A DNA stretch of 64,000 nucleotides from Arenicellales bacterium (GTDB lineage Bacteria > Pseudomonadota > Gammaproteobacteria > Arenicellales > JAJDZL01), in the NCBI GenBank assembly GCA_965116205.1, contig OZ220493.1, positions 1,547,029 to 1,611,028 on the forward strand. The letters run 5' to 3'. The notes beneath the pieces are model-generated. The model ran no database searches. It was given only the letters and a program-made list of their open reading frames with translations, and was not told the DNA's origin. This document shows positions 8,346-37,543 of this stretch, piece by piece. The translations under genes were made by a program, and so were the position numbers. Within the stretch, counting starts at the first letter, position 1. Each line of letters starts with the position of its first letter.

Positions 8346-10433
8346 TTGAAGATGAGACGACAAGCATTGGAATATCTGCGGACTGCTCTGAAAAAACCAT
8401 CTGCGTCTTTTCGGGATGGCCAATGGGAGAGCATTGAACAGTTATTGATTGGTAAACGAGTTCTAGTTGTACAGCGTACCGGTTGGGGAAAGAGCATGGT
8501 TTATTTCCTCACCACCAAGTTATTGCGTGAACGAGGAGAGGGTCCGACGCTATTGATCTCACCGTTGCTGTCGCTAATGCGCAATCAGATCGAATCAGCC
8601 CAGCGAATCGGCGTCAAAGCCCTCACCCTAAACAGCACCAATACTGACGAGTGGGAGGTGATTCAAGATGAACTGCTGGCAAATCGTGTGGATATCCTTC
8701 TCATTTCCCCGGAGCGTTTGGCCAACGATTCTTTCCGGCAGGATATTCTGAGCAATTTAGTCAAAAATATCGGCTTATTTGCCATTGATGAAGCACATTG
8801 TATTTCGGATTGGGGACACGATTTCAGACCTGATTATCAGCGGATTGAACGTGTGCTACAGGCCATTCCATCTACAGTACCGATTGTCGCAACCACCGCT
8901 ACGGCAAACAATCGTGTCGTTGCAGACGTTAAAGGGCAGCTCGGGCAGAATATCATTGTTCAAAGAGGTTCATTGATTCGCAACAGTCTAAAGTTGCAGA
9001 ACATCAGTATGCCAAAGCAGGTCGCGCGGCTGGCTTGGCTCGCGCAAACTATCCCTACACTTCCCGGCAGTGGAATCGTGTATACCCTGACTCAGCACGA
9101 CGCGGAGCGAGTGACTGAGTGGCTCAGGAACAATCATATTGATGCTGCCGCTTATCATGCGGATGTTGCTGGTCGGGAACAATTAGAATGGCAACTGTTG
9201 AATAATGAAATCAAAGTGCTGGTGGCAACCGTGGCGCTGGGTATGGGTTTTGATAAACCAGATCTAGAATTTATCATTCATTATCAACGCCCGGCATCAG
9301 TCGTGCATTATTACCAACAGGTGGGGAGAGCCGGCCGCGCGGTAGATCAGGCTTATGGCATTCTCCTGTGTGGCACAGAGGATGATCACATTGCCGATTA
9401 CTTTATCCGCCAAGCGTTTCCGCCGCAACAGCATGTCACCGAAATCTTGAAAGCCTTAGATGAATCTGACAACGGACTTTCAGTACCGGAACTGCAGGTT
9501 GCCTTGAATCTGGCGAATGGTCACATTGCAAAAACGCTGAAATTCTTAACGGTTGAATCTCCTTCTCCGGTCGTCAAAATTGGCACCAAGTGGCATGTCA
9601 CAGCCGACGCCGCCACTTATCGAATGGATGAGGAGCGAATGAATGCGATCACTAAAATCCGGTACGCTGAGCAACGGCAGATGCGCGATTACATGCGTCA
9701 TTCTCGCTGCCTGATGAATTTTCTACGAGCCAGTCTAGATGACCCATCGACTATTTCATGTGGACAATGCAGAAATTGCAATCCGGCGTTGCTCTTGGAC
9801 GAAACCTATGATGAACGTCTCGCTAACGAGGCAGCAGCTTTTTTACACCGAAGTTGCCAGCCAATCCAACCAAGAAAACAATGGCCAGTTCGCGACCTAT
9901 TCAAACAATATGCTCTCGGCCCACAGCGCAGAATTGACGAAACTCTGCAACACCGGGAAGGTCTTGTATTGACTATTTGGCGTGAAGCTGGTTGGGGAGA
10001 ACTGGTTGCTCATGGAAAATTGATTACTCATCAATTTGACGATAAATTGGTAACTGCCTGCGTAAGAATGTTACGCAATGTGAACTTTGTCGCGAGGTGG
10101 GTTACTGCGGTTCCATCATTGGAACGCCCTGATTTAGTACCGGATTTTGCTGAGCGGTTGGCAAGCGCTCTTCATTTGCCTTTCATACCCTGTGTTGAGA
10201 AGGTGGTTGCCAATCGGCGGCAGATAGAGATGGAAAACAGTTATCAACAAGCCAGAAATCTTGATGGTGTTTACCGAGTCCCCCACTGTTGCCAACCTGA
10301 AGCATGCCTCTTGGTTGATGACGTAATCATGTCGGGGTGGACTTTCACCGTCGTCTCAGCTTTGCTTCTTCAGGCCGGTTGCTCCGCCGTGTTTCCGTTG
10401 GCATTGGCTTCAAATAAGATGCGAATCAACTGA
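8346..10433 (+). CDS. RecQ-like helicase with C-terminal PRTase domain (PsyrT/RqlH-type)
   Basis: QRTGWGKS, DEAHCISDWGHDFRPDY, ALGMGFDKPD, YYQQVGRAGR, Zn motif CGQCRNC, and PRTase loop LLVDDVIMSGWT. Confidence 0.88.
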   Translation: MKMRRQALEYLRTALKKPSASFRDGQWESIEQLLIGKRVLVVQRTGWGKSMVYFLTTKLLRERGEGPTLLISPLLSLMRNQIESAQRIGVKALTLNSTNTDEWEVIQDELLANRVDILLISPERLANDSFRQDILSNLVKNIGLFAIDEAHCISDWGHDFRPDYQRIERVLQAIPSTVPIVATTATANNRVVADVKGQLGQNIIVQRGSLIRNSLKLQNISMPKQVARLAWLAQTIPTLPGSGIVYTLTQHDAERVTEWLRNNHIDAAAYHADVAGREQLEWQLLNNEIKVLVATVALGMGFDKPDLEFIIHYQRPASVVHYYQQVGRAGRAVDQAYGILLCGTEDDHIADYFIRQAFPPQQHVTEILKALDESDNGLSVPELQVALNLANGHIAKTLKFLTVESPSPVVKIGTKWHVTADAATYRMDEERMNAITKIRYAEQRQMRDYMRHSRCLMNFLRASLDDPSTISCGQCRNCNPALLLDETYDERLANEAAAFLHRSCQPIQPRKQWPVRDLFKQYALGPQRRIDETLQHREGLVLTIWREAGWGELVAHGKLITHQFDDKLVTACVRMLRNVNFVARWVTAVPSLERPDLVPDFAERLASALHLPFIPCVEKVVANRRQIEMENSYQQARNLDGVYRVPHCCQPEACLLVDDVIMSGWTFTVVSALLLQAGCSAVFPLALASNKMRIN

Positions 10434-11710
10434 TGGCAGAGGGATTTTCAACTGAGGATAAAAACGCGATTCTCCTGCTCTGCGGTGTTTTCGGAGACAA
10501 TCGAACCGAAAACCCCCTGTCCGTGCATGAATATTCAATGATCGGACGCTGGCTGATGGACGTGAATTTGTCGCCGAGTGCACTGTTGGAGAAACAATAC
10601 ATGATTGCAGCTGCCAAGCAGACGGGTATTGATAGGCAACGCTTGAAACACCTACTGGGCAGAGGTGTTCAGTTGGGATTTGCTTTGGAAGAGTGGCAGC
10701 GTAATGGGATATGGGTGATTTGCCGGGGCGATGACGACTATCCGATTCGTTATAAACAGCATCTTAAGTTCTTAGCGCCGCCATTATTGTTTGGAGTGGG
10801 AAATCGTTGTCTTCTCGCTGGCGGAGGTCTTGGCATTGTTGGTACCCACAATGTAGATCAGGCCGGCGAAACTTTTACCCGCCAAATCGCTGAACTCTGT
10901 GCTAAGAATGCAATGCGGGTGGTTGCAGGGGATGCCAGAGGTGTTGATCAGATTGCCATGTCCACCGCCCTTGCTGCCGGTGGTGAAGTGATTGGTTTGA
11001 TTACTGAAAAACTCCTGAACAAAAGCGTGGAACGACTATACCGTCGGGCCATTGCTGATGGACGTCTTTTGTTGATATCACCCTATCACCCCAGTGCACG
11101 TTTTACGGCGGGGAATGCCATGCACCGGAACAAATTGACCTACGCGATGGCTGATTATGGGATGGTCGTGAGTACAGAGTACAAAAAGGGTGGTACGTGG
11201 ATAGGAGTTGAAGAGGAACTCAAACGGAAAAATTCAATCCCTATTTTTGTGCGGATAGACCACACCGTACCAAAGGGCAATCGGCATTTGTTAAACCTTG
11301 GTGCAATTCAGTGGCAATGGGTCGACTCAGACAAACGTCACGGCTGGCAACAGGCTTTACAAGATTTGACGACAAAGTCGCGTATCAATCAATCCGAAAA
11401 CTCTCAGATGAGCATTGACTACTCAATGATGGCAGATGAAGGTGTCGCAGATGCAGGTGAAAAATCCGGTTCAGTAGTGACTGAGCATGAAGTGTTCAAA
11501 CAGGAGGCATCCGGCACTGCGTACCATGCTGTTTTACCCCTCATTCTGAAAGAACTAGATGGTGCGACTACAGTAGACGAGCTGGCTCAAACCTTACAGG
11601 TACATAAACCACAGCTCAGAGTTTGGCTGAAGCAAGCTGTGGAGGAAAAATGGATGATTCAAATTTCCACCAATCTATACAAGAAGGCCGATTCAGGTGA
11701 GCAAGCGTAA
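10433..11710 (+). CDS. DprA/Smf-like protein (PsyrA/RqlI-type)
   Basis: DDYP..., PPLLFGVGN, GIVG, ARGVD, LLISPYHP..F..GNAM.RNK and GGTW, with a C-terminal wHTH. It is translationally coupled (TGATG) to the helicase. Confidence 0.85.
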   Translation: MAEGFSTEDKNAILLLCGVFGDNRTENPLSVHEYSMIGRWLMDVNLSPSALLEKQYMIAAAKQTGIDRQRLKHLLGRGVQLGFALEEWQRNGIWVICRGDDDYPIRYKQHLKFLAPPLLFGVGNRCLLAGGGLGIVGTHNVDQAGETFTRQIAELCAKNAMRVVAGDARGVDQIAMSTALAAGGEVIGLITEKLLNKSVERLYRRAIADGRLLLISPYHPSARFTAGNAMHRNKLTYAMADYGMVVSTEYKKGGTWIGVEEELKRKNSIPIFVRIDHTVPKGNRHLLNLGAIQWQWVDSDKRHGWQQALQDLTTKSRINQSENSQMSIDYSMMADEGVADAGEKSGSVVTEHEVFKQEASGTAYHAVLPLILKELDGATTVDELAQTLQVHKPQLRVWLKQAVEEKWMIQISTNLYKKADSGEQA

Positions 11711-11896
11711 TGCCCGGTAGCCGGGCGTTGTGATTGTTTTCCACCAATATTCCCCGTACTCAGATCCAGATGAGTGGCACAGTAAAATGCCGGTCAGTCA
11801 ACTGACAAGCGTCATTGTCAATCTCACTTTGGTGACCAAAAGTTACCGGCCGTGAATCGGACAATCTCCCGGATTTGATGATTGCGCCAGCATCGC

Positions 11897-13024
11897 TTAC
11901 GTCAAGCGAAAGCGGTCGGGCGACAGTCTTGCAAATGGAAAATTGGACGTTGGAAAGGTTTGCGGCGGCTCGGTTCGGGTAATGAGCGAGGTGGCGTATT
12001 GACCGATTGCTGGTGACGTGAAGATGCCATAACCGCCTTGTCCCACCAACCAGAAAAAACCAGGATGCTCTGGTTCCCAGCCGATGACCGGGTCACCATC
12101 CTGAGAGAACGTTCGCAGGCCGGCCCAAGCGTGCGCAATGCGTCTGATTTTGAGCGTTGAAACAGCTTCAAATCGCGCCACTGTGATCGCCTTATCAATC
12201 TCTTCAGGTTGTGCATCACGGGGTGCGCTGGGGGTTTCGTCAATCGGTGACATCATCAGTTGACCGCTTCCAAACTGCTGAAAATAAAGGTAGTCCGGTT
12301 CAACAATGACGAAAGGCAAATCGTCGAACCTAAGGTCTTCGAATGGTTCATCATCAATTACTACGATAGTTCGGCGTTTGGGTATCAGTCCGACGGGACT
12401 GATGCCAGCCAGCTTCGCTATTTCATCGCCCCACGCCCCTGTAGCATTGACTACTATTGAACTCGTATAGGAATGTTCACCGGCAATGATTGTCCAAGTA
12501 TTAGATGCGGAACACGTTATTCTGGTTACTACGCTGTCGGTGAATACTTTCCCACCGCAACTAGTTAGTGTTCTGATATAGAGACTGTGTAGCGCGTGAA
12601 CATCAATGGCGGCCACCTGGGTGTCAAGCACGCCACCGACGTATTTTCCAGCCCTGAGAAACGAAACTTTTTCAAGGCATTCTGTTTCATTGAGCCAGCT
12701 GCTTTTCGGTGGTCGGTCGATGGTCATGGCAATGGACTGATCAACCAAGGTCATGGTTTGGCGAGGATTGAGTACCGATACTTCACGGTCAAACGCCGGT
12801 GATTCAAGAAATGGTCGGCTGAGCGCGCCAAAGGCTCGCATTGAGTCGGGTCCATAAAATGGGGTGTAGAGTGCGGCGCTCCTACCGGTCGTATGGTAAG
12901 CCAGTGAACTTTCTTTTTCCAACAGTGCGACGTTCAATCCATCATTCGCTAAAAACGCGGCGACCGAGGCACCGGCGATTCCTCCGCCGATGACGATCGC
13001 ATCATGGTGATTTTTTGTATTCAC
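11897..13024 (-). CDS. FAD-dependent oxidoreductase (DAO/D-amino acid dehydrogenase family)
   Basis: IVIGGGIAG, YHTTGRSAA, VNATGAWGD, WAGLRTF and FFWLVGQGGYGI. Confidence 0.9.
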   Translation of the reverse strand: MNTKNHHDAIVIGGGIAGASVAAFLANDGLNVALLEKESSLAYHTTGRSAALYTPFYGPDSMRAFGALSRPFLESPAFDREVSVLNPRQTMTLVDQSIAMTIDRPPKSSWLNETECLEKVSFLRAGKYVGGVLDTQVAAIDVHALHSLYIRTLTSCGGKVFTDSVVTRITCSASNTWTIIAGEHSYTSSIVVNATGAWGDEIAKLAGISPVGLIPKRRTIVVIDDEPFEDLRFDDLPFVIVEPDYLYFQQFGSGQLMMSPIDETPSAPRDAQPEEIDKAITVARFEAVSTLKIRRIAHAWAGLRTFSQDGDPVIGWEPEHPGFFWLVGQGGYGIFTSPAIGQYATSLITRTEPPQTFPTSNFPFARLSPDRFRLT

Positions 13025-20913: not shown

Positions 20914-21492
20914 ATGAAAACACCTTCAGCAAGCAGTTTTCCTATTCCTGAATTGGGTGATTTACCGCAAGACATTCAGGAACGTATTCTTGCCGTTCAG
21001 GACAAGGCGGGTTTCGTACCCAATGTGTTTCTTGCACTCGCTCATCGGCCGGCTGAGTTTCGTGCATTCTTTGACTATCACGATGCACTGATGGAAAAAG
21101 ACAGTGGATTAAGCAAGGCGGAAAGAGAAATGATTGTGGTTGCTACTTCCGCTGAAAACAACTGTCAATATTGTGTGGTCGCACATGGTGCGGTGTTACG
21201 CATTCGATCGAAACATCCGTTGATTGCCGATCAGGTGGCGATCAATTATCGTAAAGCTGACATCGCCCCAAAACAGCGAGTGATGCTAGATTTTGCGGTC
21301 AAAGTCTGTAATGAATCATCGTCGGTTGATGCGGCGGACTGGCAATCACTGAAAGATGTCGGATTCAACGACGAAGATATTTGGGATATTGCGGCAATTA
21401 CCGCCTTCTTTGGGATGAGCAATCGGTTGGCCAATGTGCTCGGGATGGAAGCCAATACAGAGTTTTATAGTATGGCACGCGAGCTTGATTGA
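20914..21492 (+). CDS. Peroxidase-related AhpD/CMD-family protein
   Basis: GFVPNVF, EREMIVVATS..N.CQYCVVAHGA and FFGMSNRLAN. Confidence 0.92.
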   Translation: MKTPSASSFPIPELGDLPQDIQERILAVQDKAGFVPNVFLALAHRPAEFRAFFDYHDALMEKDSGLSKAEREMIVVATSAENNCQYCVVAHGAVLRIRSKHPLIADQVAINYRKADIAPKQRVMLDFAVKVCNESSSVDAADWQSLKDVGFNDEDIWDIAAITAFFGMSNRLANVLGMEANTEFYSMARELD

Positions 21493-21718
21493 GTATCTTG
21501 GTTCATGCAGGAATGAGAGTTTTCTAGTAAACGTCCATAAAAGTTGAAGAATATGCCTCGCGCGAACGATTACGCGACCGGTGTGGTAAGTCACTATGGT
21601 ACTCATGCTGAAAAACACTCTAGCCTCACTGTGAATTAAGAGGTTCAGCTAAAGATGGAGAGTACCCTTTGAGTTTAAGCTAAATCATGTTGCGGTTCGA
21701 GAAGCCATTGATTTCCGT

Positions 21719-24928
<3,210 letters not shown>

Positions 24929-25030
24929 TTATTCCCTCACTAGGTTAATCCTATGCCAATCCTTGACATCTAAATCAACCGCATACCTCAATTGCACAAT
25001 ATTCGGTAATACCTCAGCTAAAATGGGAAA

Positions 25031-27709
25031 CTAATTTATCACAGGTGAATTCGATGAACAACCTGTCAAGTTTTCCGGCCAAAATAAAGCCAAATCATTC
25101 AACAGTACTGTCTTAAAAGGCAGTCGCAATGTGTGTATTTCTTGATTGACGTAATCACGTGCTGTTTCAAGCCATTTCAACATTACATCACTTGAAACTG
25201 AGGTGTTTGGTTGAATAAATTCTTTTCGAAGTGGTTGAATTCGATTCAAATAATTCAATAGATGCATATCACGTAGCAATGAATGGCTACCATCATTTCC
25301 ATCTGTAACTCCAACAGCAATTTTTCGTAAGTGACCCGAACGACTGGTCACTGCATCTTGAATACTGAATACAGCCAGTGGATAAGTGGCATCTCGTAAC
25401 AATGTAAGTCCACTATCTATATCTGTTGCCTGCGACAATGCTTGATCAAATACTTGATGACCAACTCCCACTATGTGATCGACTTTCTCTGTATTGCGAG
25501 TTTGTCGGTGAAATTTCAGATTGTTGTAACGTCGTCTCACACCTGGAGATTTGCGCCATTCTTCCGGTGTTTCGAAGCTGTAGGAACCATCGGAACGGTC
25601 TGGTCGGCGATGATTCTTGTGAAGTGCCCAATAAAAGAACTTTTCTAAATCTGGCAAGTCTGCCTTTGGAACATCATTCAACTGCGTAAGATCAAAACTT
25701 TGGCAATGTCCAAACATTTCTATTACAGCCTGTATTGCGGATTTTCCACCCAAGCTTCTAGTTTTGGTGTCGAACCACCCATCCAGTCGTTCGGGGGGAA
25801 TGGTTTGCCCTTCTGAAAACAGTTTGTTGTAAATATTGGAATCTGCCATACCAAGAATCATTTGCATTAGATCCTCAGGTTCATTCATCGCGTGACTGAG
25901 TGCCATCGTGATGCTTGCTAACCGATCCTCCAATTTTTCCCAGATTCTATATTCAACTGTATTCGGGTTACGTATGGTGACAACATCAACTGGATAATTT
26001 TGCCCATATCTGTTCAATCTTCCGACGCGCTGATGAAGTCTCATTGGATTCCATGGCAGGTCGACGTGAATTAAAGTGTGACATTTTCCTTGTAGATCAA
26101 TTCCTTCATCCCCCGCTTCTGTGGACACAAGAAATCTGATCTTGCCTTGATTGAAATTGTCCGCGGTACGTTCTCGATTTGCAGAAAGTGAAGCCTTTTC
26201 TCCGGATGGTAAGGACACTTCGCTCAAACGGTCATCTCCGTTGATGAAACCTACACTCTCTTTACCGAAATTCTTCATAAGGGTTGAAACTATCAAAGAT
26301 TGAGTCGCCTTAAATTCCGTAAACAGTAGTACGGAACGATCATTGAACTCACGATTGATGATTTCAGAAATGCGCTGAATTTTGCTCTCCTCCTTTACCA
26401 ACTCAGCGGCTTCAAGCAATGTACTAAGGTGTGACAGCTCGTCATTCAGGAGTTTAAATTTTCGCTTGTTGCTCCAATGAAGCAAATGGTCAAAAATTTC
26501 AACTTCTTCTTCACTGTCGTTAAACGAGCCTATACTTGCTTGATCTTGCAATTCATTGGCTATTAACTTGATTTCATTTATCCGTTTCTTCAGAGTTGCG
26601 CGGATCGCAGCTACTGAACTTGATGCTATTTTTTGTATTGCGATCAACACCAACGTTACCTCTTTCGCCGCTTGTTCATCTAACCCTGAAGCATAAGCTT
26701 TTCCTTCAAGAATGAACTGAGTTAACAGGTCATAGAAGTTCTTTTCATTATCAGAGTAATCATAAATTTCAGGACGATTGTTTACGGGCTGGAACAATTT
26801 ATTGCCATCCATGTCTGTTACTTTTTGCTTGAAGTTTCTGATCATCACATTCTGGAGTTTCGGTAGCTGTATACGATCCGGGATTTGAGGACTGAAAGCT
26901 TCCGGCTGAAGCAGTTGCATCAGTGACCAAAACCCGTGACGCTTACCACGATGCGGAGTGCCTGTGAAGAAAAGACATGATTGGACGAGTTGTTTTGCCA
27001 TCAACTCCTCAACAAGTTTATAACCCCTTGTTTTACCCGCGTGTTCCTCAACATTGAGATGATGTGCTTCATCGACGATAAGCATATCCCATGCAGGGGC
27101 ATCTAGCAGTCGTTCGCGTCGACTTCTGTGGTCCATGCGCATGGTGGGAAGAGATGCAATAACTTGATTATGAGTGTTCCAGAAGTCAGCTCTTGGGCGG
27201 TCTATCGCGGGGTGATACACTGATGTTCGTATGTCGAACAATCTTCGCAACTGACCCTGCCATTGTTCTACAAGAGAAGCAGGTGTGAGGATCAAGAGCC
27301 TTCTGACTCTTCCACTTGAAAGTAGCGGCCAGAGAATCAATCCGGCTTCTATAGTCTTTCCCAGTCCGACATCGTCGGCGATTAACTTACGAATAGGCCA
27401 TTGTTGCAATGTGCGGTGACAAACCCAAAGTTGATGTGGTAGGAGTTCAATGCGAGAACGGGAAAACACACCCCATGCGTCGTTTAAAGAACGTATTGCT
27501 GCTGCTTGGGATTTGAGGGTCATATCTAAGGTCGTTGACCAGTGCCGCTTGTTAATCGCATCAGCTACTGACCAGCGTGATGTGAGACTTTCTGTTTCAC
27601 AAGACTCAATGCCATGTTCGAATTGAACGACTACAATTGAACCCTTGTCAAGTAGTACGGTTCCAGTCCCGAAATCTGGATGGTGAACTAGTTGATCTGA
27701 TTGAAACAT
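25031..27709 (-). CDS. SNF2/RapA-like (DrmD-like) helicase with N-terminal Tudor-like domain
   Basis: VHHPDFGTGTV, LLPHQ, LIADDVGLGKTIEAG, DEAHHL, TGTPH, EGIDLQ and DLPWNPMRLHQRVGRLNRYGQ. Confidence 0.9.
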   Translation of the reverse strand: MFQSDQLVHHPDFGTGTVLLDKGSIVVVQFEHGIESCETESLTSRWSVADAINKRHWSTTLDMTLKSQAAAIRSLNDAWGVFSRSRIELLPHQLWVCHRTLQQWPIRKLIADDVGLGKTIEAGLILWPLLSSGRVRRLLILTPASLVEQWQGQLRRLFDIRTSVYHPAIDRPRADFWNTHNQVIASLPTMRMDHRSRRERLLDAPAWDMLIVDEAHHLNVEEHAGKTRGYKLVEELMAKQLVQSCLFFTGTPHRGKRHGFWSLMQLLQPEAFSPQIPDRIQLPKLQNVMIRNFKQKVTDMDGNKLFQPVNNRPEIYDYSDNEKNFYDLLTQFILEGKAYASGLDEQAAKEVTLVLIAIQKIASSSVAAIRATLKKRINEIKLIANELQDQASIGSFNDSEEEVEIFDHLLHWSNKRKFKLLNDELSHLSTLLEAAELVKEESKIQRISEIINREFNDRSVLLFTEFKATQSLIVSTLMKNFGKESVGFINGDDRLSEVSLPSGEKASLSANRERTADNFNQGKIRFLVSTEAGDEGIDLQGKCHTLIHVDLPWNPMRLHQRVGRLNRYGQNYPVDVVTIRNPNTVEYRIWEKLEDRLASITMALSHAMNEPEDLMQMILGMADSNIYNKLFSEGQTIPPERLDGWFDTKTRSLGGKSAIQAVIEMFGHCQSFDLTQLNDVPKADLPDLEKFFYWALHKNHRRPDRSDGSYSFETPEEWRKSPGVRRRYNNLKFHRQTRNTEKVDHIVGVGHQVFDQALSQATDIDSGLTLLRDATYPLAVFSIQDAVTSRSGHLRKIAVGVTDGNDGSHSLLRDMHLLNYLNRIQPLRKEFIQPNTSVSSDVMLKWLETARDYVNQEIHTLRLPFKTVLLNDLALFWPENLTGCSSNSPVIN

Positions 27710-27786
27710 TGTGAGTTTATGGTTCTGATTGAGTTGTAGATCTTTTCTGCATATGCATCGGATGAAAAATTGCGAGCTACATAGAC

Positions 27787-30700
27787 CTACGCAATGACCC
27801 TTCCAAACAGTTGATTATGTTTATCATAATGAGATTCCAAAGTGATGATACGTAGCGGGATATCGTAACTTCCGTTGAATGTTGCTTTCTGAATTCCCAA
27901 GTGGCGCTTCAAGATGTCATAGAGTTCCGGAGAGGTTGATACTTCTTCTCCAAATGTTTCAAAAAAGCGCCTAATTCGCCGTATCGGTGCATACGCATGT
28001 GGTTTGATAAAAGGGGTTTCATCAATTAAACGGTGGTACAGCAACTCTCGGATGACAAAGGGATAACCAACTTTTAAAGTTCTCTTGAGTGATGGTGGGT
28101 CAATACCACCGCCTTGTAGGTGCGGGTTGTTGCGCGGGTCTAGAATCATATCAACAGTGATCACTTTTGTAAACAGACTCAGAGATTGAAAGAGTTCTTT
28201 ATAGTCGTCCAGTCCACGTTTTAACCGATACAATCTGGGGAACTGACTCATCCAAAGTGTCCATTTTTCGTCTTCCTCTTCAATAAACTGTTCAATTATG
28301 TTCATCCACTGGTCTGGTGCTTTGTTAGGGTCAGAGCTTGTAAAAGTATTCCACCATCCTCTCTGTCGACAATCAAGAATAAATTTGCGATGATGTTCTT
28401 CTTTAGTGCGGCCTATACTTTGAAAACTCCCCAATGCAAGTAGCATAAACCACCAAGAATTGTCTTTTTCTGATTTCTGTTGAAATTCTTGCGGATAAAT
28501 TTTCTTTCGGTATTCTGTTAACTCTAAATGTTCATTTTTCTCCCACCACTTGTACAGTCTGTCTAGAGCAGTTTGCAAATCAATGGGTAGTGGAAGCGGA
28601 GGCCCCGGCGGACCGGGGTCCCAGTCTGGTCCTAATAGTCGACGAACTTCTTTTCGCTGGTTTTCGGTCAGTTCGATGGGTAAAGCAAAATTATCAGGTG
28701 GGAAAAATTCCTTCAACCATCTTTTGTTGCGAATCAGTTTAGCAACGTCCACACTTAGGTCGCCTTCTGCAAGATAAACGAGAGCATTGAATCTTGACTT
28801 TTCTGTATCTGCATTCAATACCCACTTCGCAAGCTCTTCCGCCGGCGCTTCCATGCGATTGCGGCAAAATCGAAAAAACTCATTCGCCGATGCCTCTACG
28901 TCTAATGCGTCTACTTTGTAGTAACTGCGATGTAAACGACGCTCCGGTGGCGCTAATCTGTGGCGTAGTAATTCATCATAGTCGCCGCTAGTAATTTGAC
29001 ACGTCAATAGATTTTTTGAGCCAATCCACTTATCTTTATCTGCCTCAGACTTAAACTGAAGTTCATTTAACTGATCGGTGACCTCTTCAGACTTCCAGTA
29101 CTGATGATCTTTGGTTTTGGTCATCAAGTATAAGCGTCCCAACACTTTCGCATCTTTGGGCTTAACCCGGTTGTGTTCCAGATATTTGATAAATGTGGAT
29201 ATTTCAAGGCATTGAAGGTTTATGTTTTTGGTTTTTTTTAGAATGTTGGCGGTTCTTTCTGAGACACAATTTGTGCCTGAATAGTGTTTGCTGAAGTGTT
29301 TCCATGTACTCAATTCTCTGCATATATCTTCATGTAGTAGCAACTTATGTAAATGAAACTGAATATCGTTCAGGCTTGAAAAAGCGCGTAAACAGCCTTT
29401 CAGACCATTGGGTATGGCCTGTTTAAAGTCGCACAGTTTCGCGAGAGCTGTCTCTACGACTACACGCGGCAGATTATCGACGTCCTTTGTTAATGATTTT
29501 TCAGTCAAACCTAGCCAAATACTCTCCCAGAAATCTAGCGGACTAAAGTTGGCCTCCAATCCCAATTTTGATCGGAAATCACACCAATTATTCCGAGAAT
29601 ATTCAAACAAATTTCCCAAGGTATTACCAGCTTGGTTCCCAATTTTCTCGGCTTTATTGACATTGTATTGGATATCTCCTACCAATCGGCCCCGTCCGAC
29701 ATCAATTGCAAAATTGCCATTTAAAACGAAACCAACGTGCGAGACTTCCTGAGTGGGCGTCGTAACCCAAAGGGCAGGTATGTTTTTTGGAATTTGTCGA
29801 TACCCCTTTGGTCCTATGGCGATGAGTAGGTCACCATGTTTGCCTCGTATACACATCGCTTTCGTCTGTTTACTTCCATCAATTTCGATATCAAGATTAC
29901 CCATTTCGACATCAGGACAGATTTGCATTGGTTTCCACTCTGAAACTGTCTTTGTAGTCGAGCTATGAATTTCAATAATATTTATGGCTTTTCCAAAGAT
30001 GCAAAGAATACCTGCAAGGTGTTTAAATTGCTCTAGAATGACTTGCTGCTTGTCTTTTACATTCGGTAGATTAATGAGCGTTCCTGGCAAATTAGTTTTC
30101 CTGCCAAGTTCATTGAGCCGTCTCATTTCTTTGTCCACAATTTCGTTTTTCAAAGGTTGTGGCAACATTCCTGCCACTATGCGGACTGCCAAAAGACCAC
30201 TGAGAATCAAAGGTTCCTCGCAAGCTAGAAATACACTTTTGAAACCAAGTCCAAACTTACCGGTGAGTGATTTTTGATCGGTCTTGTTACTAGCGGACAA
30301 GATGAGCATTTTTTCTAAATCTTTTTCATAATTTTGTTTGTTGTAATTGAATCCTATGAGTGTAGCGTTCACAGGTCTACCCCAATGCGCGAAGGCGATA
30401 CCATTTCTCCACTCTTGTACAGCAAATCGAGATTCTACAGTCTGCTCGAACTGTTTAATTTCCACTGTAGCATCGTCGGCGTTTTGAAATAACTCCATTG
30501 GTATGCTGGATAAATCATATTGGTACTTTTTGAGTTCATTCTTTACTGCTTTCAAGATAGTTCTTTGCACTTTTGGTTTTTTGATACATTCGGCCAATAT
30601 TTCTAGTTTCTTTCGCAATTTACCTCTAATATCTTCTATTTCTTCTTTGTTTTTCTTTGCTGTCTCCGCCTCAGCAAGTTGTCTCCTCAAGCTGTCAAAA

Positions 30701-33700
30701 GCAGTCAAGTGATTTATTAATTGTTTGTTCCTCACGGAGAACCGTTGGAGATAAAATGGAATATTCTCTAAGATGAGTTGACGTGCGGTTTCAATTTCAA
30801 GTTGGTTGCTTTTGTTCAGTTCTTTCCACAACGAATTTAGGTTCACTTTCTGGTCGTGAAGGTCAGAGCAAAGACATTCAGCCGAGTAAAGTAGTATTCG
30901 TTTAAGTTTATCTGCTGACAGTTGAGGGGGGTCAATTTCACGTAACGGAATAACAACGGAATTATCGCTAGTAGAACTCCATAGTAGATTGCCGGCCAAG
31001 ATGGTATCTGGTTCATTATTGAGAGGAAGTGGAATGCGGTCACAGAGAATATTGAGCACCTCCACTTGGTCTTTTTCTTGAACTGTTACTCCCACTCTAA
31101 TACTATTCAGTGCTTCTTCCAGAGACATTCCACCACCACGCATGTCATCCCTACGAGTTGCCCACTTTTTATTTAACTCTCCTACAAACCAGTTAAAGCT
31201 ATGTGGTTTCAGGTATTCGCCGGCTAGGTTTCTCACCGATTGACTGAGCAATGAACACACTGCGCCGATCAAGGGTTTGGGTACAAGAGTTGATTCCCAA
31301 GGTTTGAAATAACATCTCAAATCATTGTCTATAGAACCTAGAAGTTGCTCGAACTTACTATTTGAAATTTCAAGTTTAAGGTTTTTTTCTCTACTGTTGA
31401 TTCGATTTCGGCAAATGAGATTGTTGAGTATAGAGTCTTGATTTCGATCAAGAAGATATTTTCTGGCTATCCCATGGGTATGAGTTCTGGTGCACAACAT
31501 TGTGGACTTGCACCAAGTTTTAGCTTCCGATGCGAGTGATATGTGGGGAAGCTGGGTACCTACCTTTTTGTAATGTTGTTTGACAAGTTGGCAAAGATAA
31601 ATATCGTAGAGAGATTTTCTAGCTTTCCAATCGGTGTCTTCACTACTCAGGAAATTAAGTACTCCAATCAATTTTTCGAAATCAATTGGTTTCGTAAGCG
31701 ATGGTTTTAACCTCTCCCAAGCAATTTCTGGATCGTCGTTTGCTACCATCTGCAACAGTCTCCAACCAGGTAGATTGTTATGCCGTGCCAATATCTGAAT
31801 TTTCTTGTCGCTTGGTTGCTCCAAGATCTCTCCAATGTGATATTTCGGTAAATTTTCAAGTAACACGCACAATTGATCCAGAAAATTTTGAGACCGAGTG
31901 TCAGATACAAACAACTTTCTGACGCATTCCCATGCTTTATGCTCCTGAACTTCAGATTTGATATCATTCGACAAGGCGAAACAAGGTTTTTCATCTTTAG
32001 TTTCTTTTAACACGCGATATTCACTCAGCAGTCGAGAAATTTCGTCGTGAAATTCTCCTTGAATGTCGAATACGTGTAAAGGTTTGACAGGCACTTCGTA
32101 TTCCGTGGGTAACCACGCTGTGTTTTTCACTGAATCTAATAGTGAATTTGGAATTCGGTTAGCCAAATTCATTAGCGCATTGATTATGTGCATCCAATAT
32201 TTCTGTGGTAACTGAAATTTAGGATTCAGCGCTACCTTTAATATTGCTTTGTCGTCAAATGAAGACAACCATTTTTTCTGTTTGTCTGCCTGACTTGGGT
32301 TTTCACTTTGTTTGACTAGAGTTATTTCACCAACCAAAGGATCACTGGTGTCGAAGTCAGGTGGCGCGAGATAAACTTCTATATCGACTGAGGTGCAACC
32401 CCCTTTAACCGTTGTATGCGCGGGTAGCCATTTCCAAACTTCTTCACTTTCAATGCAAGACAGAACTTCGTCTCTTTCTCTAATGCACAGCACCTGAAGA
32501 TCGGGGGCATCTTGCGGTGATTTGTAAATCTTATACAAATCTTCGATTAGTGAGCTCTTATTGATTTCCTTTACAGTTGCCTGAAGCAATAGATATCGAG
32601 GTAAAACATTGACGAGTTCATCTGGAATTACGCTCCACTCTTTATCAAGGTTTAATACCATCCATAATTTCTGCCAAGCAGTACCCAGCTCTCCATCAGA
32701 TTTAAACCAAAGAGTTGAATCAAGGTCATCACGATGAGTTTGTGACCCGTGAAGCAAATACCTTAGTCCACGTAGCGCATCGTCAACTGCCTCAGGATCA
32801 TTCACTTTTTTAAGCATCGCTCGGCGCTCACTAAAGTCTCCAAGTTGGCCCGAATATTTCCCTATCGTTGCCAAACAGGCTACACTATCGTCAGCACTGG
32901 GAAGATCTTCTACATTGCCATGAAATTTTCTATATTCATTGATGCTGATGAGTGTGACTTCACTATCAAGCAAAACTCTTACCAGGGTTGGGGTGATTCC
33001 TAGAGAGTTACTTCTTAATCCGGCTGTAAGTCGAAATAGTGTTTCACTTTTCTGAAATCGATTTAGGGTATTAATATCCACCAATTTGTCTTTAGAACTT
33101 CTAGCGTCCCGTACGTTGATGACGTTACACGTGGGATATTTTTCCAGAAAGTTTCGTAACCCTTCTGTTTCTATGGTATTGAGTAACCCCTCAATTCCTT
33201 TTTTGATTCTAGTTTGCTCGACGTCCAGAGATTGTCGGTCGAACGAATCGGCGAGTGTCGACAGATATTTGTTTAATGTATCCCAACCTGGAATAGCTAT
33301 CCCCTTTTCTTCCGCGTCCATTCCCTTTGGGACGAGCAAAAAAGAATCCAATTTGTTGATCTGCAATAACTCATCAAGATCCTGCTTCCGCAATTTGTCG
33401 GCCAGTTCCAACCTATTTTCCGGTCGAATAAAACTAATCAGTCTTTTAGATTTACTCACCACATGGTGCAAACTTTCTTTATCTAAATTTAGTATTTCAT
33501 CCCTAATCAGAACAATTAACTCATTCTGAACTAATTGGGAATTCAGGTACTGCTCTCCGCAGGAATCAAGAAAATCTTTCAGATAATCCATATGGCCTTG
33601 ATTTCTGAATAAGCCATGAATTTGGGAAAGTAGGCTGACTATTTCCTCTTCCTGCCACTCAAATTTCTGAAGACTCAAATTTGGCGCCGAATAGTCGTAG

Positions 33701-35271
33701 AGTATGAAACCTAATTCGCTCATTTTCGGGAATACTTTCAATGGACGATGCAAGTCAGATTCTGGGGGTTTTGGGATTGGGCGTAGCAAGTGAAAATTAT
33801 TTTGACGAATTAGACGCCAATGCCACTTGTGGGAACCATAGTTTAAGGTTCGTAACCAAGAACCCTCCCGACAGATGTGTTTGTGGAATTTTTTGAAGAA
33901 ATTTGATTGTGAGATGATCGTAGTAAGTAAAAAACAAGAGTCATCGGATAATTTCTGATACTTGGTGTGCTGTTCTATAGCGGGTAACACTAGGGGAAGT
34001 AGAACGATCTGAGACAGTAGTTGATTCCAAGTTTTGTATATTTCTTCTTCGTCTAAAGTTTCGTGATCAAAATACATGGGGGGTTCGTTCAAGCTCTCAA
34101 AGTGTCTGATTTTATTGCGCCCAGAATCTAGAAAAAATTGACCATGAAGAAGCAATACAAACGAATTTTTTGAACCATGCATCTCAAGGTATTCGTAACA
34201 ATGGTCATCCTCTAATGGTAAGAATACAGTCCAAAGAAGGTGAGAGCTGACTTCAATATTATGAGTAGAAGAGATGATTACAGCCGCTTCCGGACGGTTT
34301 TTATCCAGAATTTCAATCTCAGCTCCGGACTCATCGTAATTATGAGTTTTGGGCCAAGCAGGCATTTCTCTCAATTTCAATATGCGGGTATCATCACTTT
34401 CATTCTTCAACCCTGTGAATATCAATGGTTGCTGCAGATTTGACAGCTGGATTTTACCTTGAGCTGTTTCGACACATAAATCGCTGAGCAGCCGAGACCC
34501 TGAAAATTGAACAGCAAAATTGTTGTTTTCCTTTTGTTGTTCAACACGCTCGACGTGTCGAAGAAGTGGTAGAAATTCTGCTATCTTATAGGTGAGTGAA
34601 TTGTCGTTCAAGAATTGCAATTCGGTTTCGGGGGCGTCTCCTGGAAAACGATTGACTATAACACCCGTTGTAATACCTTGTGGCGTATCAAGATGGGCTT
34701 TTTTTCTTAGTGGAAGCCAAAGCAAGAACCACGCACAATTTTTATTTGAGCCACTACTTAATTCTTCACCCTTTAGTTTCAAGCGTTTCCAATCGCCCGA
34801 ATCAATTGCATTCCAGTTGTCATGGTGTTTCGTCTCTTTCCATGGATTAACTCCCCTCATAAAGTATTGTTTTCCATCCCAAGCAACGTAGAAAAAGGCT
34901 TCACATAAATGAAAAACACTCTTTAAACCGAGTCCAAATTTGCCTATGGTGTCTGATTGACCTGCTTTACTACCAATTCCAAATGAACTGATGCCATGGA
35001 CATCATTTTCTTTAAACTCACCGTTGTTGAAGAACCAAAGTCCGGTACCCTTTAACAGTGGATTGGGTGAGTCTGGGAAACCGCAATGTTTACCAAATAT
35101 AAATGTTCGAGCTTTGGCATCGTCGGCGTTTTGGATCAATTCTTTGAGTATAGGAAAACCATTCTGATAACGATTTCGAAGATTGTCACGTAGCAGATTA
35201 ATGAGGTTGACTGTAAGTCCACCAACAAAAGAATTTTCAGTGGGTATTTGTAAATCGGGTTTCTTAGACAC
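27787..35271 (-). CDS. 2494-aa protein with two sacsin-like GHKL/HSP90-type ATPase modules and an unknown C-terminal domain
   Basis: LKELIQNADDA...IGKFGLGLKSVF near the N-terminus, and MELFQNADDA...TGKFGLGFKSVF near 30230-30495. The GTG start has a strong SD (AGGAGGTGA). Confidence 0.85.
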   Translation of the reverse strand: MSKKPDLQIPTENSFVGGLTVNLINLLRDNLRNRYQNGFPILKELIQNADDAKARTFIFGKHCGFPDSPNPLLKGTGLWFFNNGEFKENDVHGISSFGIGSKAGQSDTIGKFGLGLKSVFHLCEAFFYVAWDGKQYFMRGVNPWKETKHHDNWNAIDSGDWKRLKLKGEELSSGSNKNCAWFLLWLPLRKKAHLDTPQGITTGVIVNRFPGDAPETELQFLNDNSLTYKIAEFLPLLRHVERVEQQKENNNFAVQFSGSRLLSDLCVETAQGKIQLSNLQQPLIFTGLKNESDDTRILKLREMPAWPKTHNYDESGAEIEILDKNRPEAAVIISSTHNIEVSSHLLWTVFLPLEDDHCYEYLEMHGSKNSFVLLLHGQFFLDSGRNKIRHFESLNEPPMYFDHETLDEEEIYKTWNQLLSQIVLLPLVLPAIEQHTKYQKLSDDSCFLLTTIISQSNFFKKFHKHICREGSWLRTLNYGSHKWHWRLIRQNNFHLLRPIPKPPESDLHRPLKVFPKMSELGFILYDYSAPNLSLQKFEWQEEEIVSLLSQIHGLFRNQGHMDYLKDFLDSCGEQYLNSQLVQNELIVLIRDEILNLDKESLHHVVSKSKRLISFIRPENRLELADKLRKQDLDELLQINKLDSFLLVPKGMDAEEKGIAIPGWDTLNKYLSTLADSFDRQSLDVEQTRIKKGIEGLLNTIETEGLRNFLEKYPTCNVINVRDARSSKDKLVDINTLNRFQKSETLFRLTAGLRSNSLGITPTLVRVLLDSEVTLISINEYRKFHGNVEDLPSADDSVACLATIGKYSGQLGDFSERRAMLKKVNDPEAVDDALRGLRYLLHGSQTHRDDLDSTLWFKSDGELGTAWQKLWMVLNLDKEWSVIPDELVNVLPRYLLLQATVKEINKSSLIEDLYKIYKSPQDAPDLQVLCIRERDEVLSCIESEEVWKWLPAHTTVKGGCTSVDIEVYLAPPDFDTSDPLVGEITLVKQSENPSQADKQKKWLSSFDDKAILKVALNPKFQLPQKYWMHIINALMNLANRIPNSLLDSVKNTAWLPTEYEVPVKPLHVFDIQGEFHDEISRLLSEYRVLKETKDEKPCFALSNDIKSEVQEHKAWECVRKLFVSDTRSQNFLDQLCVLLENLPKYHIGEILEQPSDKKIQILARHNNLPGWRLLQMVANDDPEIAWERLKPSLTKPIDFEKLIGVLNFLSSEDTDWKARKSLYDIYLCQLVKQHYKKVGTQLPHISLASEAKTWCKSTMLCTRTHTHGIARKYLLDRNQDSILNNLICRNRINSREKNLKLEISNSKFEQLLGSIDNDLRCYFKPWESTLVPKPLIGAVCSLLSQSVRNLAGEYLKPHSFNWFVGELNKKWATRRDDMRGGGMSLEEALNSIRVGVTVQEKDQVEVLNILCDRIPLPLNNEPDTILAGNLLWSSTSDNSVVIPLREIDPPQLSADKLKRILLYSAECLCSDLHDQKVNLNSLWKELNKSNQLEIETARQLILENIPFYLQRFSVRNKQLINHLTAFDSLRRQLAEAETAKKNKEEIEDIRGKLRKKLEILAECIKKPKVQRTILKAVKNELKKYQYDLSSIPMELFQNADDATVEIKQFEQTVESRFAVQEWRNGIAFAHWGRPVNATLIGFNYNKQNYEKDLEKMLILSASNKTDQKSLTGKFGLGFKSVFLACEEPLILSGLLAVRIVAGMLPQPLKNEIVDKEMRRLNELGRKTNLPGTLINLPNVKDKQQVILEQFKHLAGILCIFGKAINIIEIHSSTTKTVSEWKPMQICPDVEMGNLDIEIDGSKQTKAMCIRGKHGDLLIAIGPKGYRQIPKNIPALWVTTPTQEVSHVGFVLNGNFAIDVGRGRLVGDIQYNVNKAEKIGNQAGNTLGNLFEYSRNNWCDFRSKLGLEANFSPLDFWESIWLGLTEKSLTKDVDNLPRVVVETALAKLCDFKQAIPNGLKGCLRAFSSLNDIQFHLHKLLLHEDICRELSTWKHFSKHYSGTNCVSERTANILKKTKNINLQCLEISTFIKYLEHNRVKPKDAKVLGRLYLMTKTKDHQYWKSEEVTDQLNELQFKSEADKDKWIGSKNLLTCQITSGDYDELLRHRLAPPERRLHRSYYKVDALDVEASANEFFRFCRNRMEAPAEELAKWVLNADTEKSRFNALVYLAEGDLSVDVAKLIRNKRWLKEFFPPDNFALPIELTENQRKEVRRLLGPDWDPGPPGPPLPLPIDLQTALDRLYKWWEKNEHLELTEYRKKIYPQEFQQKSEKDNSWWFMLLALGSFQSIGRTKEEHHRKFILDCRQRGWWNTFTSSDPNKAPDQWMNIIEQFIEEEDEKWTLWMSQFPRLYRLKRGLDDYKELFQSLSLFTKVITVDMILDPRNNPHLQGGGIDPPSLKRTLKVGYPFVIRELLYHRLIDETPFIKPHAYAPIRRIRRFFETFGEEVSTSPELYDILKRHLGIQKATFNGSYDIPLRIITLESHYDKHNQLFGRVIA

Positions 35272-35280
35272 TAACTCAAT

Positions 35281-35289
35281 TCACCTCCT
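35281..35289 (-). promoter_or_regulatory. Shine-Dalgarno sequence of the sacsin-like gene
   Basis: The reverse complement of tcacctcct is AGGAGGTGA, 9 nt before the GTG at 35271. Confidence 0.75.
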
Positions 35290-35636
35290 ATTATCTTGTT
35301 TTGTAATTTTGTATGAGTTAAGCCCAGCAGCTACTGAATCAATTGTATTTGACTAAATTGGGCCGATAATCCTTGTTCGCACATAGTAGCATTTGGAGCA
35401 CTGTCGGTATTCAGTCAGAGATTGACGCCTTCAATACCCCCAACAGAACGGATGCATATCGGATCGATTTTAACGATGATTAGAATGACTGCTCTGCCAT
35501 TTCGGTAGAATCCGCTTGATTTTTATATCGCTGAACTACTGACTTGATTCAAAAAAGTTGGTTGTATCTGATCCTCCAAAAGCCTGTATTATGACTTGTG
35601 TATAGCTGAATTGTGCTAAAATTCAATTATTGCTTG

Positions 35637-35674
35637 AAAAAACGAAAGGGGGCGATAAGCGCCCCCTTTCTTTT
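35637..35674. terminator. Bidirectional intrinsic terminator
   Basis: An 11-bp stem GAAAGGGGGCG / CGCCCCCTTTC with loop ATAAG, an A run on the left and a T run on the right. Confidence 0.8.
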
Positions 35675-35704
35675 GTCCTTATCGCATAGCGACAGTATAG
35701 GACT

Positions 35705-35799
35705 GCCCGAGTGACAGAACGGTTAATGTGCGGGGTTTGCAACCCCTGGCTCCACTGGATAATCCAGACTGGTAGCGGGTTCAACTCCCGCCTCGGGCT
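35705..35799 (+). tRNA. Non-canonical tRNA-like gene with long variable arm; anticodon UGC (7-nt loop) or GCA (8-nt loop)
   Basis: Acceptor GCCCGAG/CTCGGGC, U8, D-arm ACA-GAACGGTTAA-TGT, anticodon arm CGGGG-TTTGCAA(C)-CCC, variable hairpin CTGGA-TAA-TCCAG, T-arm GCGGG-TTCAACT-CCCGC, and discriminator U followed by TCA. Confidence 0.7.
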
Positions 35800-36274
35800 T
35801 CATCAAAGAAGTTGTAACGCAACAGATAAAGGAGCCAGTCCACCGCAACCAACCTTTTCTACGGTGATTTATAGCACAAATTATTTGCTGTATGCTCGTT
35901 TTTTCTATCGTCATGGTCTTTCTCAAGAACCGTAGACCTGCGCACTCAACCTAACTCGTAGCAATATAACGTTCTAATTGTTGTCTATCGTTTGTGAATT
36001 TGTCTTTAGTAGGTTCAGACATCCTGAACTTGTCCCATAATGATATCACTATTCGAGATGATGGAACCGTGCCAATGTCGCAGTCGTCGGTGCTCCTAAT
36101 GCCGGCCACTCCATCGCCATGACATTCGGCTACATCGTTTTTTTGGTTCATGAATCTGCGCCAAGTAGCTTTGCCGGCGTCCAGCATCAATGTTTGAGAC
36201 CTTTCGGTGTTGCATGTCTACCCCAAAACAACGTATAAACTCCATTCGTATCAAGGTAGAGTGCATCAGTTATT

Positions 36275-37543
36275 TCAATCTGTTGACGATGGTTCAGCCG
36301 GAATACGCTCCAAACGCAGTATATCATCAATTGATTCTCTCGCTCTGATCACAAAAAATTCATGACCATCAACCAGTACTTCAGCAGGTTTGGGGCGAGT
36401 ATTGTAGTTCGAAGACATCACTGCACCATAAGCTCCGGCATCAAGAACTGCGATAAAGTCGTTGGCTTTGATTGAGAGTGTTCGGTCCTTGCCCAGAAAA
36501 TCACCGGATTCACAAACGGGTCCTACTACATCATAAGTCTGTTCCTTTGTAGATTTTTTCTGCACAGGAACAATATCCATCCAGGCCTCATAGAGCACCG
36601 GTCTGAGCAGATCATTCATGGCAGCATCAATTAGTGCGAAGTTCTTTGTGCCGGTTGATTTAGTGTATTCGACTCTGCTCAGCAGGATGCCGGCATGCGC
36701 GGCTATTGCTCGTCCCGGTTCAATAGAGAGCGGCAATGAACAGTTTCGACGGTTCAATGTATTAAGAATGGTAGTACAGTACTCAGTAATGGTTGGTGGT
36801 TCTTCGTTCTTATAGCGTACACCCAGTCCACCGCCCAGGTCAAGGTGCTTAACGACAATATTCTCAGCCGCCAGCTGCTCGGTAAAATCCAACACTCGTG
36901 CCAGCGCATCGATGATTGGTTCAAGTGAAGTCATCTGTGAACCGATGTGAACTGCAATACCGACGACATCAAGGTTTTTTTCCTGTTGTGCGAATCTGAA
37001 TAGGTCCAGCGCTTCGGTGAAATCAACTCCAAATTTTGCTTCTCGAAGTCCAGTTGAAATATGTGGATGGGTGTTGGGATCAATATCAGGATTGACACGT
37101 ATACTCACCGGAGCTTGACGCTTCAGTGATCGCGCAATGTCGCATATTCGCTCCATTTCTGGACGAGATTCAACATTCAGCGAAAATATTTCTGATTCAA
37201 GCGCGAATCTGATCTCTTCTGCAGATTTGGCGACCCCGGAAAAGATGATTTTCTCAGGTTTTCCACCGGCGCGAATGACACGCTGGAGTTCGCCACCGGA
37301 TACCACATCAAATCCTGAATCCAGTTGTGCCATAAGCGCCAGAACAGCAAGATTGGAATTGGATTTCACTGAATAACAGACCGTTGCATCATGGCTTTGA
37401 AAACCACGGTTGAATTCCTGCCAATGGTGTTCTAAAGCCGCACGAGAGTAAACATAGGTTGGCGTACCAACGGTGTGCGCAATCTGTTCAAGCGAAACGT
37501 TTTCGGCGTGGAGTAGGCCGTTGTGGTAGGTAAACGGATTCAT
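36275..37543 (-). CDS. lysA: Diaminopimelate decarboxylase
   Basis: GTPTYVYS, YSVKSNSN, FDVVSGGEL, HIGSQ, EPGRAI, GPVCESGD and MSSNYNTRP. Confidence 0.97.
   Translation of the reverse strand: MNPFTYHNGLLHAENVSLEQIAHTVGTPTYVYSRAALEHHWQEFNRGFQSHDATVCYSVKSNSNLAVLALMAQLDSGFDVVSGGELQRVIRAGGKPEKIIFSGVAKSAEEIRFALESEIFSLNVESRPEMERICDIARSLKRQAPVSIRVNPDIDPNTHPHISTGLREAKFGVDFTEALDLFRFAQQEKNLDVVGIAVHIGSQMTSLEPIIDALARVLDFTEQLAAENIVVKHLDLGGGLGVRYKNEEPPTITEYCTTILNTLNRRNCSLPLSIEPGRAIAAHAGILLSRVEYTKSTGTKNFALIDAAMNDLLRPVLYEAWMDIVPVQKKSTKEQTYDVVGPVCESGDFLGKDRTLSIKANDFIAVLDAGAYGAVMSSNYNTRPKPAEVLVDGHEFFVIRARESIDDILRLERIPAEPSSTD

Follow-up and report, generated by a model that had tools for sequence, protein, structure and literature searches.

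Few families of natural bacterial tRNAs are known to misread sense codons. Among the closest to the gene described here are the allo-tRNAs and other irregular tRNAs of Mukai et al. (2017; PMC5389517). According to that report, long-arm allo-tRNAs with non-Ser anticodons insert serine and arrest the growth of E. coli, six allo-tRNA(UAU) species are inactive in translation, and the group was linked by its authors to transposons and toxin-antitoxin systems; the supplements cover polycistrons of irregular tRNAs with a 7/5 fold and could include related sequences. A natural mistranslator of Ala codons is tRNA-ProA, which has A34 and A15:A48 (PMC10404621).

The identity rules against which such genes can be judged are, from PMC9976931, as follows: AlaRS needs G3·U70, A73 is crucial for LeuRS, GlyRS needs C35 and C36, and the CysRS determinants are U73 together with GCA. 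Recognition by SerRS depends on the long arm, whatever the anticodon; G2-C71 and G73 are retained in bacterial Ser tRNAs, and for the E. coli enzyme C2-G71 acts as an antideterminant.

A literature search that included few subscription papers did not turn up class II tRNAs that are borne by IS1595 and have Ala anticodons or an antisense cassette. In type I toxin-antitoxin modules, which occur on mobile DNA, a gene is overlapped by a small convergent antisense unit whose end is a two-way terminator. The layout described below, with its predicted antisense unit, would resemble such modules; here the putative toxin would be a tRNA and not a peptide.

The gene lies in a 64,000-nt stretch of an Arenicellales genome, the whole of which is called the window. 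It is read, tentatively and with somewhat less than even confidence, as part of a left-behind IS1595-type tRNA cassette, its product being a missense tRNA, kept repressed, that would put serine in place of alanine at Ala codons.

A conserved class II tRNA gene

35705..35802 (+): class II (long variable arm) tRNA gene with a 7/5 fold, from the sequence, ARAGORN, Rfam and the family alignment
35738..35740 (+): in-register anticodon UGC (Ala) in a 7-nt loop, from ARAGORN, the family alignment and parsimony
35748..35774 (+): variable region of 27 nt with an 8-bp bulged stem; the hairpin folds in 14/14 family copies

A tRNA-like gene had been described at this position by the first-pass annotation, and the structural features that it listed were all confirmed in the sequence. 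The 7-bp acceptor stem pairs 35705-11 with 35792-98 and has all seven pairs intact, as does the T stem all five (35775-79/35787-91); the D arm has a 3-bp stem with GG in its loop, and the variable region contains CCA-CTGGA-TAA-TCCAG-AC-TGG. The third acceptor pair is C3-G70 and not G3·U70, the discriminator is U73 (35799), and the 3′ end reads TCA (35800-02), CCA not being encoded. The gene also carries G1-C72, C2-G71 and A15·A48. In the isotype check, ARAGORN called 35705-35799 as tRNA-Ala(TGC), and 35705-35802 scored 48.7 bits with the Rfam tRNA model RF00005 (gathering score 29; E 2e-8). None of 200 shuffled sequences folded equally well (z -3.7). For the unmodified RNA the best structure was a rod at -44.4 kcal/mol, against -36.2 kcal/mol for the cloverleaf. 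The tRNA-like gene is real and conserved.

Elsewhere in the source genome (G000; a single contig of 3.33 Mb) are canonical tRNA genes for Cys(GCA) and Ala(TGC, GGC, CGC), and 35705-35802 is therefore an extra tRNA gene; a role as the sole or housekeeping Cys or Ala tRNA was rejected. CCA is encoded in 42 of the host's 45 other ARAGORN calls. Over the whole genome, ARAGORN with default settings listed tRNA-Arg with ACG, TCG and CCT, and neither tRNA-Arg(CCG) nor tRNA-Sec.

Family members and covariation

Searches by BLAST, by a pattern free of the anticodon and by a covariance model (R1) gave a family of 16 copies in 10 genomes: the source genome, 7 of 30 other genomes of the genus, one of the Dehalococcoidia (G243) and one other gammaproteobacterium (G244), the copies in the last two being found by a pattern that required G35. 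Fourteen distinct sequences were analysed, omitting a second G018 copy, different at one base, and the G041 copy, identical to G008c. The 7/5 fold is common to all aligned copies. G1-C72 and U73 are present in all 14 distinct copies, G3·U70 in none and G2-C71 in two, and the variable arm is 23-29 nt long with a hairpin in each. The T loop, the D-loop GG, U33 and A37 are conserved; CCA is encoded in 9/14 copies and absent from 35705-35802, G018 and G008a. The G018 tRNA has 2 acceptor mismatches.

Over 13 copies, 96% of 247 cells are paired and 29 cells are changed on both sides; positions 28 and 42 are among those that covary. The copies are kin and not independent, and kinship inflates the shuffle control, in which 0/500 shuffles scored as high; slid controls paired 29-56%. 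Homologues had been proposed as a check on the gene, and they retain the loop length and the long arm in every distinct copy, with strong covariation.

No wider spread emerged from the searches: a pattern search of other genera of the order matched 0/212 genomes, and 100 kin each of G243 and G244 yielded no further copy. A single scan of genome contigs with a pattern requiring G35 returned mostly canonical Ser tRNAs, and a tree of tRNA cores gave no resolution of Ser, Cys or Leu ancestry. A phage or plasmid origin was rejected: two patterns run on viral contigs gave 0 matches and 2 chance matches in coding DNA, and blastn of phage and plasmid records found no match to the family.

Anticodon register and amino-acid identity

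Both anticodon-arm folds set out in the first-pass annotation exist as described, one a 7-nt loop with UGC and the other an 8-nt loop containing GCA. In the 7-nt loop GCA (35739-41) occupies positions 35-37 and not 34-36. A sequencing slip of TT for TTT at 35736-38, a possibility named in that annotation, was rejected: no indel is present in 8/8 public contigs covering the site (all from one study, of which X1 may be the source sample), and the loop has the same length in 14/14 distinct copies, 35705-35802 included. This family-wide loop length also speaks against an extra-U mutation of a Cys tRNA in the source genome. Two of the eight contigs have CGC as anticodon instead of TGC.

C27 is unpaired with 43 throughout the family; the C27·U43 mismatch is characteristic of the family rather than a mark of decay. 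Out of 70 anticodon-stem cells, 52 are paired with a plain 7-nt loop, 60 with an 8-nt loop, and 63 with a 7-nt loop in which 43 is bulged and C27 pairs with G44; counting Watson-Crick pairs only, the respective values are 48, 50 and 59. On these sequences the 7-nt loop is favoured for the family, with the 8-nt loop as a less likely alternative.

Read in the 7-nt loop, the anticodons of the 14 distinct copies are UGC (5), CGC (4), AGC (3), GAA (1) and GGA (1), so that NGC, the Ala codon box, is found in 12 of them with U, C or A at 34. On a cassette tree made without the anticodon, position 34 changes 6 times by parsimony among the 12 genus copies, the maximum of 33 tabulated positions, and positions 35 and 36 change once each. 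The G014 copy, which was outside the training set of the model, has UGC, the model itself giving weight to NGC.

For the amino acid, Ala and Leu are excluded because G3·U70 is absent (0/14 copies) and A73 is absent, the discriminator being U73 in 14/14. The Ser set is represented by the long variable arm (14/14), and 35705-35802 has neither G73 nor G2-C71; the Cys set is represented by U73, with GCA lying outside positions 34-36 of the 7-nt loop. On sequence grounds Ser is the likeliest amino acid for the family and Cys the second. The copy 35705-35802 would be a poorer Ser substrate than the A2-U71 copies because C2-G71 works against SerRS. The likeliest synthetase ignores the anticodon, yet GC is kept at 35-36 with a free position 34, which therefore points to codon reading; with GC at 35-36, codon reading would mean Ala-to-Ser missense decoding. 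The earlier suggestion of a missense or +1 frameshift suppressor thus survives in part, missense being most likely and a +1 or Cys function with the 8-nt fold possible.

The nearest Ser tRNAs found are array tRNA-Ser(GCU) genes on metagenome contigs (L161-L175). The pattern used there, which also required RGC at 44-46, recovered 15 tRNAs that have the family's D arm and leave C27·N43 unpaired; all 15 are Ser tRNAs with in-register Ser anticodons in a 7-nt loop (GCU in 14, CGA in 1). They share with the family the D arm, the unpaired C27·N43 followed by R44-G45-C46, and the long arm, and 14 of the 15 scanned score 50-67 bits with R1; they differ from it in their Ser anticodon and mostly in a GGA acceptor start with G73 (13/15). 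Two have U73.

Cysteine would be the outcome if CysRS read U73 and GCA at 35-37, or if a slippery stem opened the 8-nt loop (NGCA reading UGC-N); the effect would be Cys at Ala codons or a +1 shift of frame at Cys codons. This is an unlikely reading, though one with several points in its favour: U73 is universal in the family and is, with GCA, the Cys determinant (PMC9976931); host tRNA-Cys is similar in its acceptor and D arm (66% core identity, third-closest of 64 tRNAs); a short-arm Cys-type body with a CGC loop occurs in G243; purine and pyrimidine runs permit both registers (60 vs 63 of 70), G014 having AAAA/UUUUU; and HisRS has been suggested to be able to read positions 35-37 (Mukai et al., PMC5389517). 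It is opposed by the Watson-Crick count (59/70 for the 7-nt loop with a bulge, 50/70 for the 8-nt loop), by the 28-42 covariation and by the presence of the same GC at 35-36 in fixed 7-nt loops of A73 Leu bodies (see below). Furthermore, a +1 shift at UGC is needed by no cargo or neighbour: a search for frameshift-dependent cargo found none, intact transposases exist, and the frameshift in a neighbouring helicase gene sits at ATGGTGAGC.

A promoter-terminator-antisense cassette

35614..35622 (+): predicted extended -10 promoter (TGnTAAAAT), 7/8 matches; a pattern match, not a demonstration of function
35644..35670 (either strand): 11-bp G+C hairpin flanked by an A-run upstream and a T-run downstream, resembling a terminator on either strand
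35675..35703 (+): another conserved hairpin of the leader (GTCCT...AGGAC), abutting the tRNA 5′ end
35868..35876 (-): predicted antisense extended -10 promoter (TGCTATAAA); likewise a pattern match, not function

The sequences that flank the tRNA recur among the genus copies as a cassette. In 9/12 genus copies an upstream -10 motif with 7/8 matches lies 89-104 nt before the tRNA, and the two-way terminator-like hairpin is upstream of the tRNA in 12/12. From the downstream motif a predicted antisense RNA of ~225 nt would cover the tRNA and end at the terminator. This motif reaches 7/8 in 7/12 genus copies (6 of them at 64-70 nt downstream), a level seen in 9% of shuffles and in 1.5% of windows taken at random from the genome; the motif is lacking in G243 and G244, and G018 has a weak one. 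At the 35705-35802 locus the terminator and the two -10 motifs are intact. An Rfam match to sraA (31.8 vs 56 bits) was rejected as being the terminator alone. The terminator and the predicted antisense unit would keep the level of tRNA low, which would fit the expectation for a toxic tRNA.

The 90-nt leader is as well conserved as the tRNA itself (mean identity 72% vs 73%), as might also be expected of a non-translating tRNA mimic with an antisense RNA, uncharged or off the ribosome, that acts as a stress signal, as a decoy drawing in tRNA-directed enzymes, or as a processing or regulatory element of the transposon end. The identity set is incomplete for every synthetase, and some irregular tRNAs are inactive, or charged yet unused (PMC5389517). 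Such a mimic is nevertheless improbable, since codon reading would lead one to expect the observed pattern, position 34 free and 35-36 fixed, and the family retains the T loop, D-loop GG, U33 and A37, and CCA in 9/14 copies.

A small basic ORF (~40-55 aa) lies between IS1595 cargo and the tRNA cassette at L027:7226-7372 (+) and also in L022, L025, L028 and L041; it is conserved and has no NCBIfam match. In G018 the cassette and an AAA-ATPase/PD-(D/E)XK gene are tandemly duplicated 3.06 kb apart (L021:7120-9418 and 10183-12486).

IS1595 context and Leu-body tRNAs

Relatives lie just within the ends of IS1595 elements. An inverted repeat (IR) with ≤3 mismatches is found 132-154 nt upstream of the tRNA in 6/13 copies, is worn in 2/13 and absent in 5/13, 35705-35802 among these; this IR is similar to that of the ISNwi subgroup. 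In six copies an IS1595 transposase or its remnant faces the tRNA, and the relatives' transposase scores 190 bits with NF033547 (cut-off 75). In G243 and G244 the tRNA instead points away from an IS1-like transposase, which in G243 scores 79.8 bits against a cut-off of 100. The view that this is a non-canonical, conserved mobile-element tRNA is supported by this context and by the covariation.

The same slot in complete IS1595 elements is occupied by tRNAs with a Leu-type body (A73). Four complete Leu-body elements have identical IRs and exact 8-bp target duplications (4/4), against 0/2 for U73-body elements with both ends. These elements are L245:4804-7555 (G001), L240:5091-8157 (G024), and L241:771-5393 and L242:5168-8214 (G005); the long-arm tRNA is just within one IR, with CGC, GUC and CGG as anticodons. 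The Leu-body tRNAs have non-slippery 5-bp anticodon stems that fix a 7-nt loop. Ten distinct genus copies carry CGC (four), GGC, GUC, CGG, CAA, CUC and UUA, Ala anticodons thus making up 5/10; R1, a model that favours NGC, detected the first six, and among the 4 found by a second model (R2) only, one has an Ala anticodon.

Other irregular tRNAs were seen in these searches. At L262:1501-1587 (+) in G024, 60 nt upstream of an IS1-like transposase, a Leu-body tRNA with CCA has an in-register UUA (ochre) anticodon and is a candidate natural ochre suppressor. Three irregular tRNAs lie near the IS1-like gene of G243 (L248:6479-6735 (+) and 10754-10829 (-)): a U73 long-arm tRNA with UGC, a Leu-body CGC tRNA in tandem, and the short-arm Cys-type body (U73) with a CGC loop. 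In G003, tandem 114-nt Leu-body CGC tRNAs with a variable region of ~40 nt are found at L243:4892-5005 and 5438-5551 (-).

The locus beside lysA

21500..36270 (no strand): ~15-kb island between a CMD/AhpD-like gene (20914-21492) and lysA (36275-37543)
27787..35271 (-): 2494-aa sacsin-domain protein, its N-terminal part like PADLOC TmtA, divergent from the tRNA

This defence island comprises an EcoRI-type RM pair, a frameshifted helicase, a DrmD-like SNF2 helicase, the sacsin protein and, at the lysA end, the tRNA cassette. In 14/20 kin loci the CMD/AhpD-like gene directly follows lysA, with other inserts in 5 and 1 unclear; here the two are 15 kb apart. A resident gene at lysA was rejected, R1 finding no copy in the other 26 of 27 scanned loci (mostly lysA loci of kin). 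A specific tie of the tRNA to the neighbouring sacsin and SNF2 genes, as had been proposed, is not borne out: relatives have other neighbours, and what recurs is the IS1595 end with the promoter-terminator cassette. A link to Schlafen/AlbA_2 genes, which adjoin 3 copies, was set aside; the source genome alone has 7 members of that family.

No IS1595 transposase was matched by tblastn in the window, and the best terminal IR at the locus has 11/24 mismatches, which is chance level. The locus would be an IS1595 end that has lost its transposase and kept the cassette. In the cassette tree the copy groups with G018 and G008a, of which G008a retains the IR.

It might then be a pseudogene, an orphan IS1595 end whose tRNA is still undecayed. 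The missing transposase and IR would fit this, as would the loss of CCA, the acceptor mismatches in the G018 sister copies and several stem changes in one public contig carrying the locus. Against it, the acceptor (7/7) and T (5/5) pairs are intact, as are the terminator and the two -10 motifs; the tRNA shares 92% and 87% identity with those of G018 and G008a where the flanks are 70-81% identical; and in a sister-strain contig joined to lysA, at the same locus, C2-G71 is replaced by U2-A71, a compensatory change. A pseudogene is therefore judged rather improbable, slightly more so than either the cysteine reading or the mimic. The idea of a decaying mobile-element tRNA accordingly holds for the surroundings (IS end, transposase and CCA lost) and fails for the stems.

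Discussion

The family shares with the allo-tRNAs and irregular tRNAs a long arm, a G73/U73-type discriminator and non-cognate anticodons, and the allo-tRNAs, for some of which Ser mis-insertion is shown, also occur near a transposon gene and toxin-antitoxin systems (PMC5389517). It is set apart from them by a canonical 7/5 fold in place of 8/4 or 9/3, by a 3-bp D stem with a GG loop in place of a long D stem with a tetraloop, by anticodons that cluster in the Ala box, and by a fixed position within IS1595 ends, next to a terminator and a predicted antisense promoter. With tRNA-ProA/tRNA-ProX of Streptomyces it has in common that a non-Ala body bears an Ala anticodon (AGC) and is misannotated as tRNA-Ala, and also A34 and A15:A48, 35705-35802 itself having A15·A48. 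However, tRNA-ProX has a Pro body (C1:G72) and its own ProRSx in the operon (PMC10404621), whereas the family is class II, U73 and mobile, and 35705-35802 has G1-C72 and no synthetase (proSx) among its neighbours. The selC* tRNA-Cys are similar in their long arm and U73 but have an 8/4 fold, GCA or UCA in register and selB*/cysS* neighbours (PMC5389517 and PMC7609411); 35705-35802 has a 7/5 fold, UGC, and sacsin and lysA as neighbours. Membership of the allo-tRNAs or selC*, considered earlier, is thus contradicted by the 7/5 fold. By analogy, the family would work like allo-tRNAs and tRNA-ProA, while being a member of neither.

In the preferred serine reading, transcription would start at the upstream -10 site, most of it would be stopped by the terminator, and it would be countered by the antisense RNA from the downstream -10 site. 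SerRS would charge the tRNA via its long arm regardless of the anticodon, and decoding of GCN codons would give low-level Ala-to-Ser mistranslation; the benefit to the element may be addiction, or a growth arrest triggered by stress or phage. The copy 35705-35802 may be a weakened family member, since CCA must be added and C2-G71 is carried.

A wider proposal, doubtful though slightly less so than the rival readings above, is that IS1595 transposons spread an RNA-only toxin-antitoxin or abortive-defence module. Its toxin would be an Ala-codon-mistranslating class II tRNA, reached more than once on Ser/Cys-type and Leu-type bodies, its antitoxin a cis-antisense RNA, and the cassette would be kept in defence islands after transposase loss.

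A mobile family in which non-Ala bodies keep Ala-box anticodons within a recurrent promoter-terminator-antisense layout hints at a spread of controlled mistranslation by insertion sequences, and opens to direct test the proposal that irregular tRNAs have a part in transposon or toxin-antitoxin biology. The value rests in the family and its cassette more than in the copy 35705-35802. ARAGORN miscounts such genes as tRNA-Ala.

Two further features of the island were seen. The DEAD-type helicase gene at 23894-24928 (-) of the window is frameshifted near 23950, with its C-terminal part in another frame. Between the cassette and lysA, 200 nt at 36010-36207 are 76% identical to G000:35305-35503 and, from the sequence, look like a broken gene fragment or small repeat.
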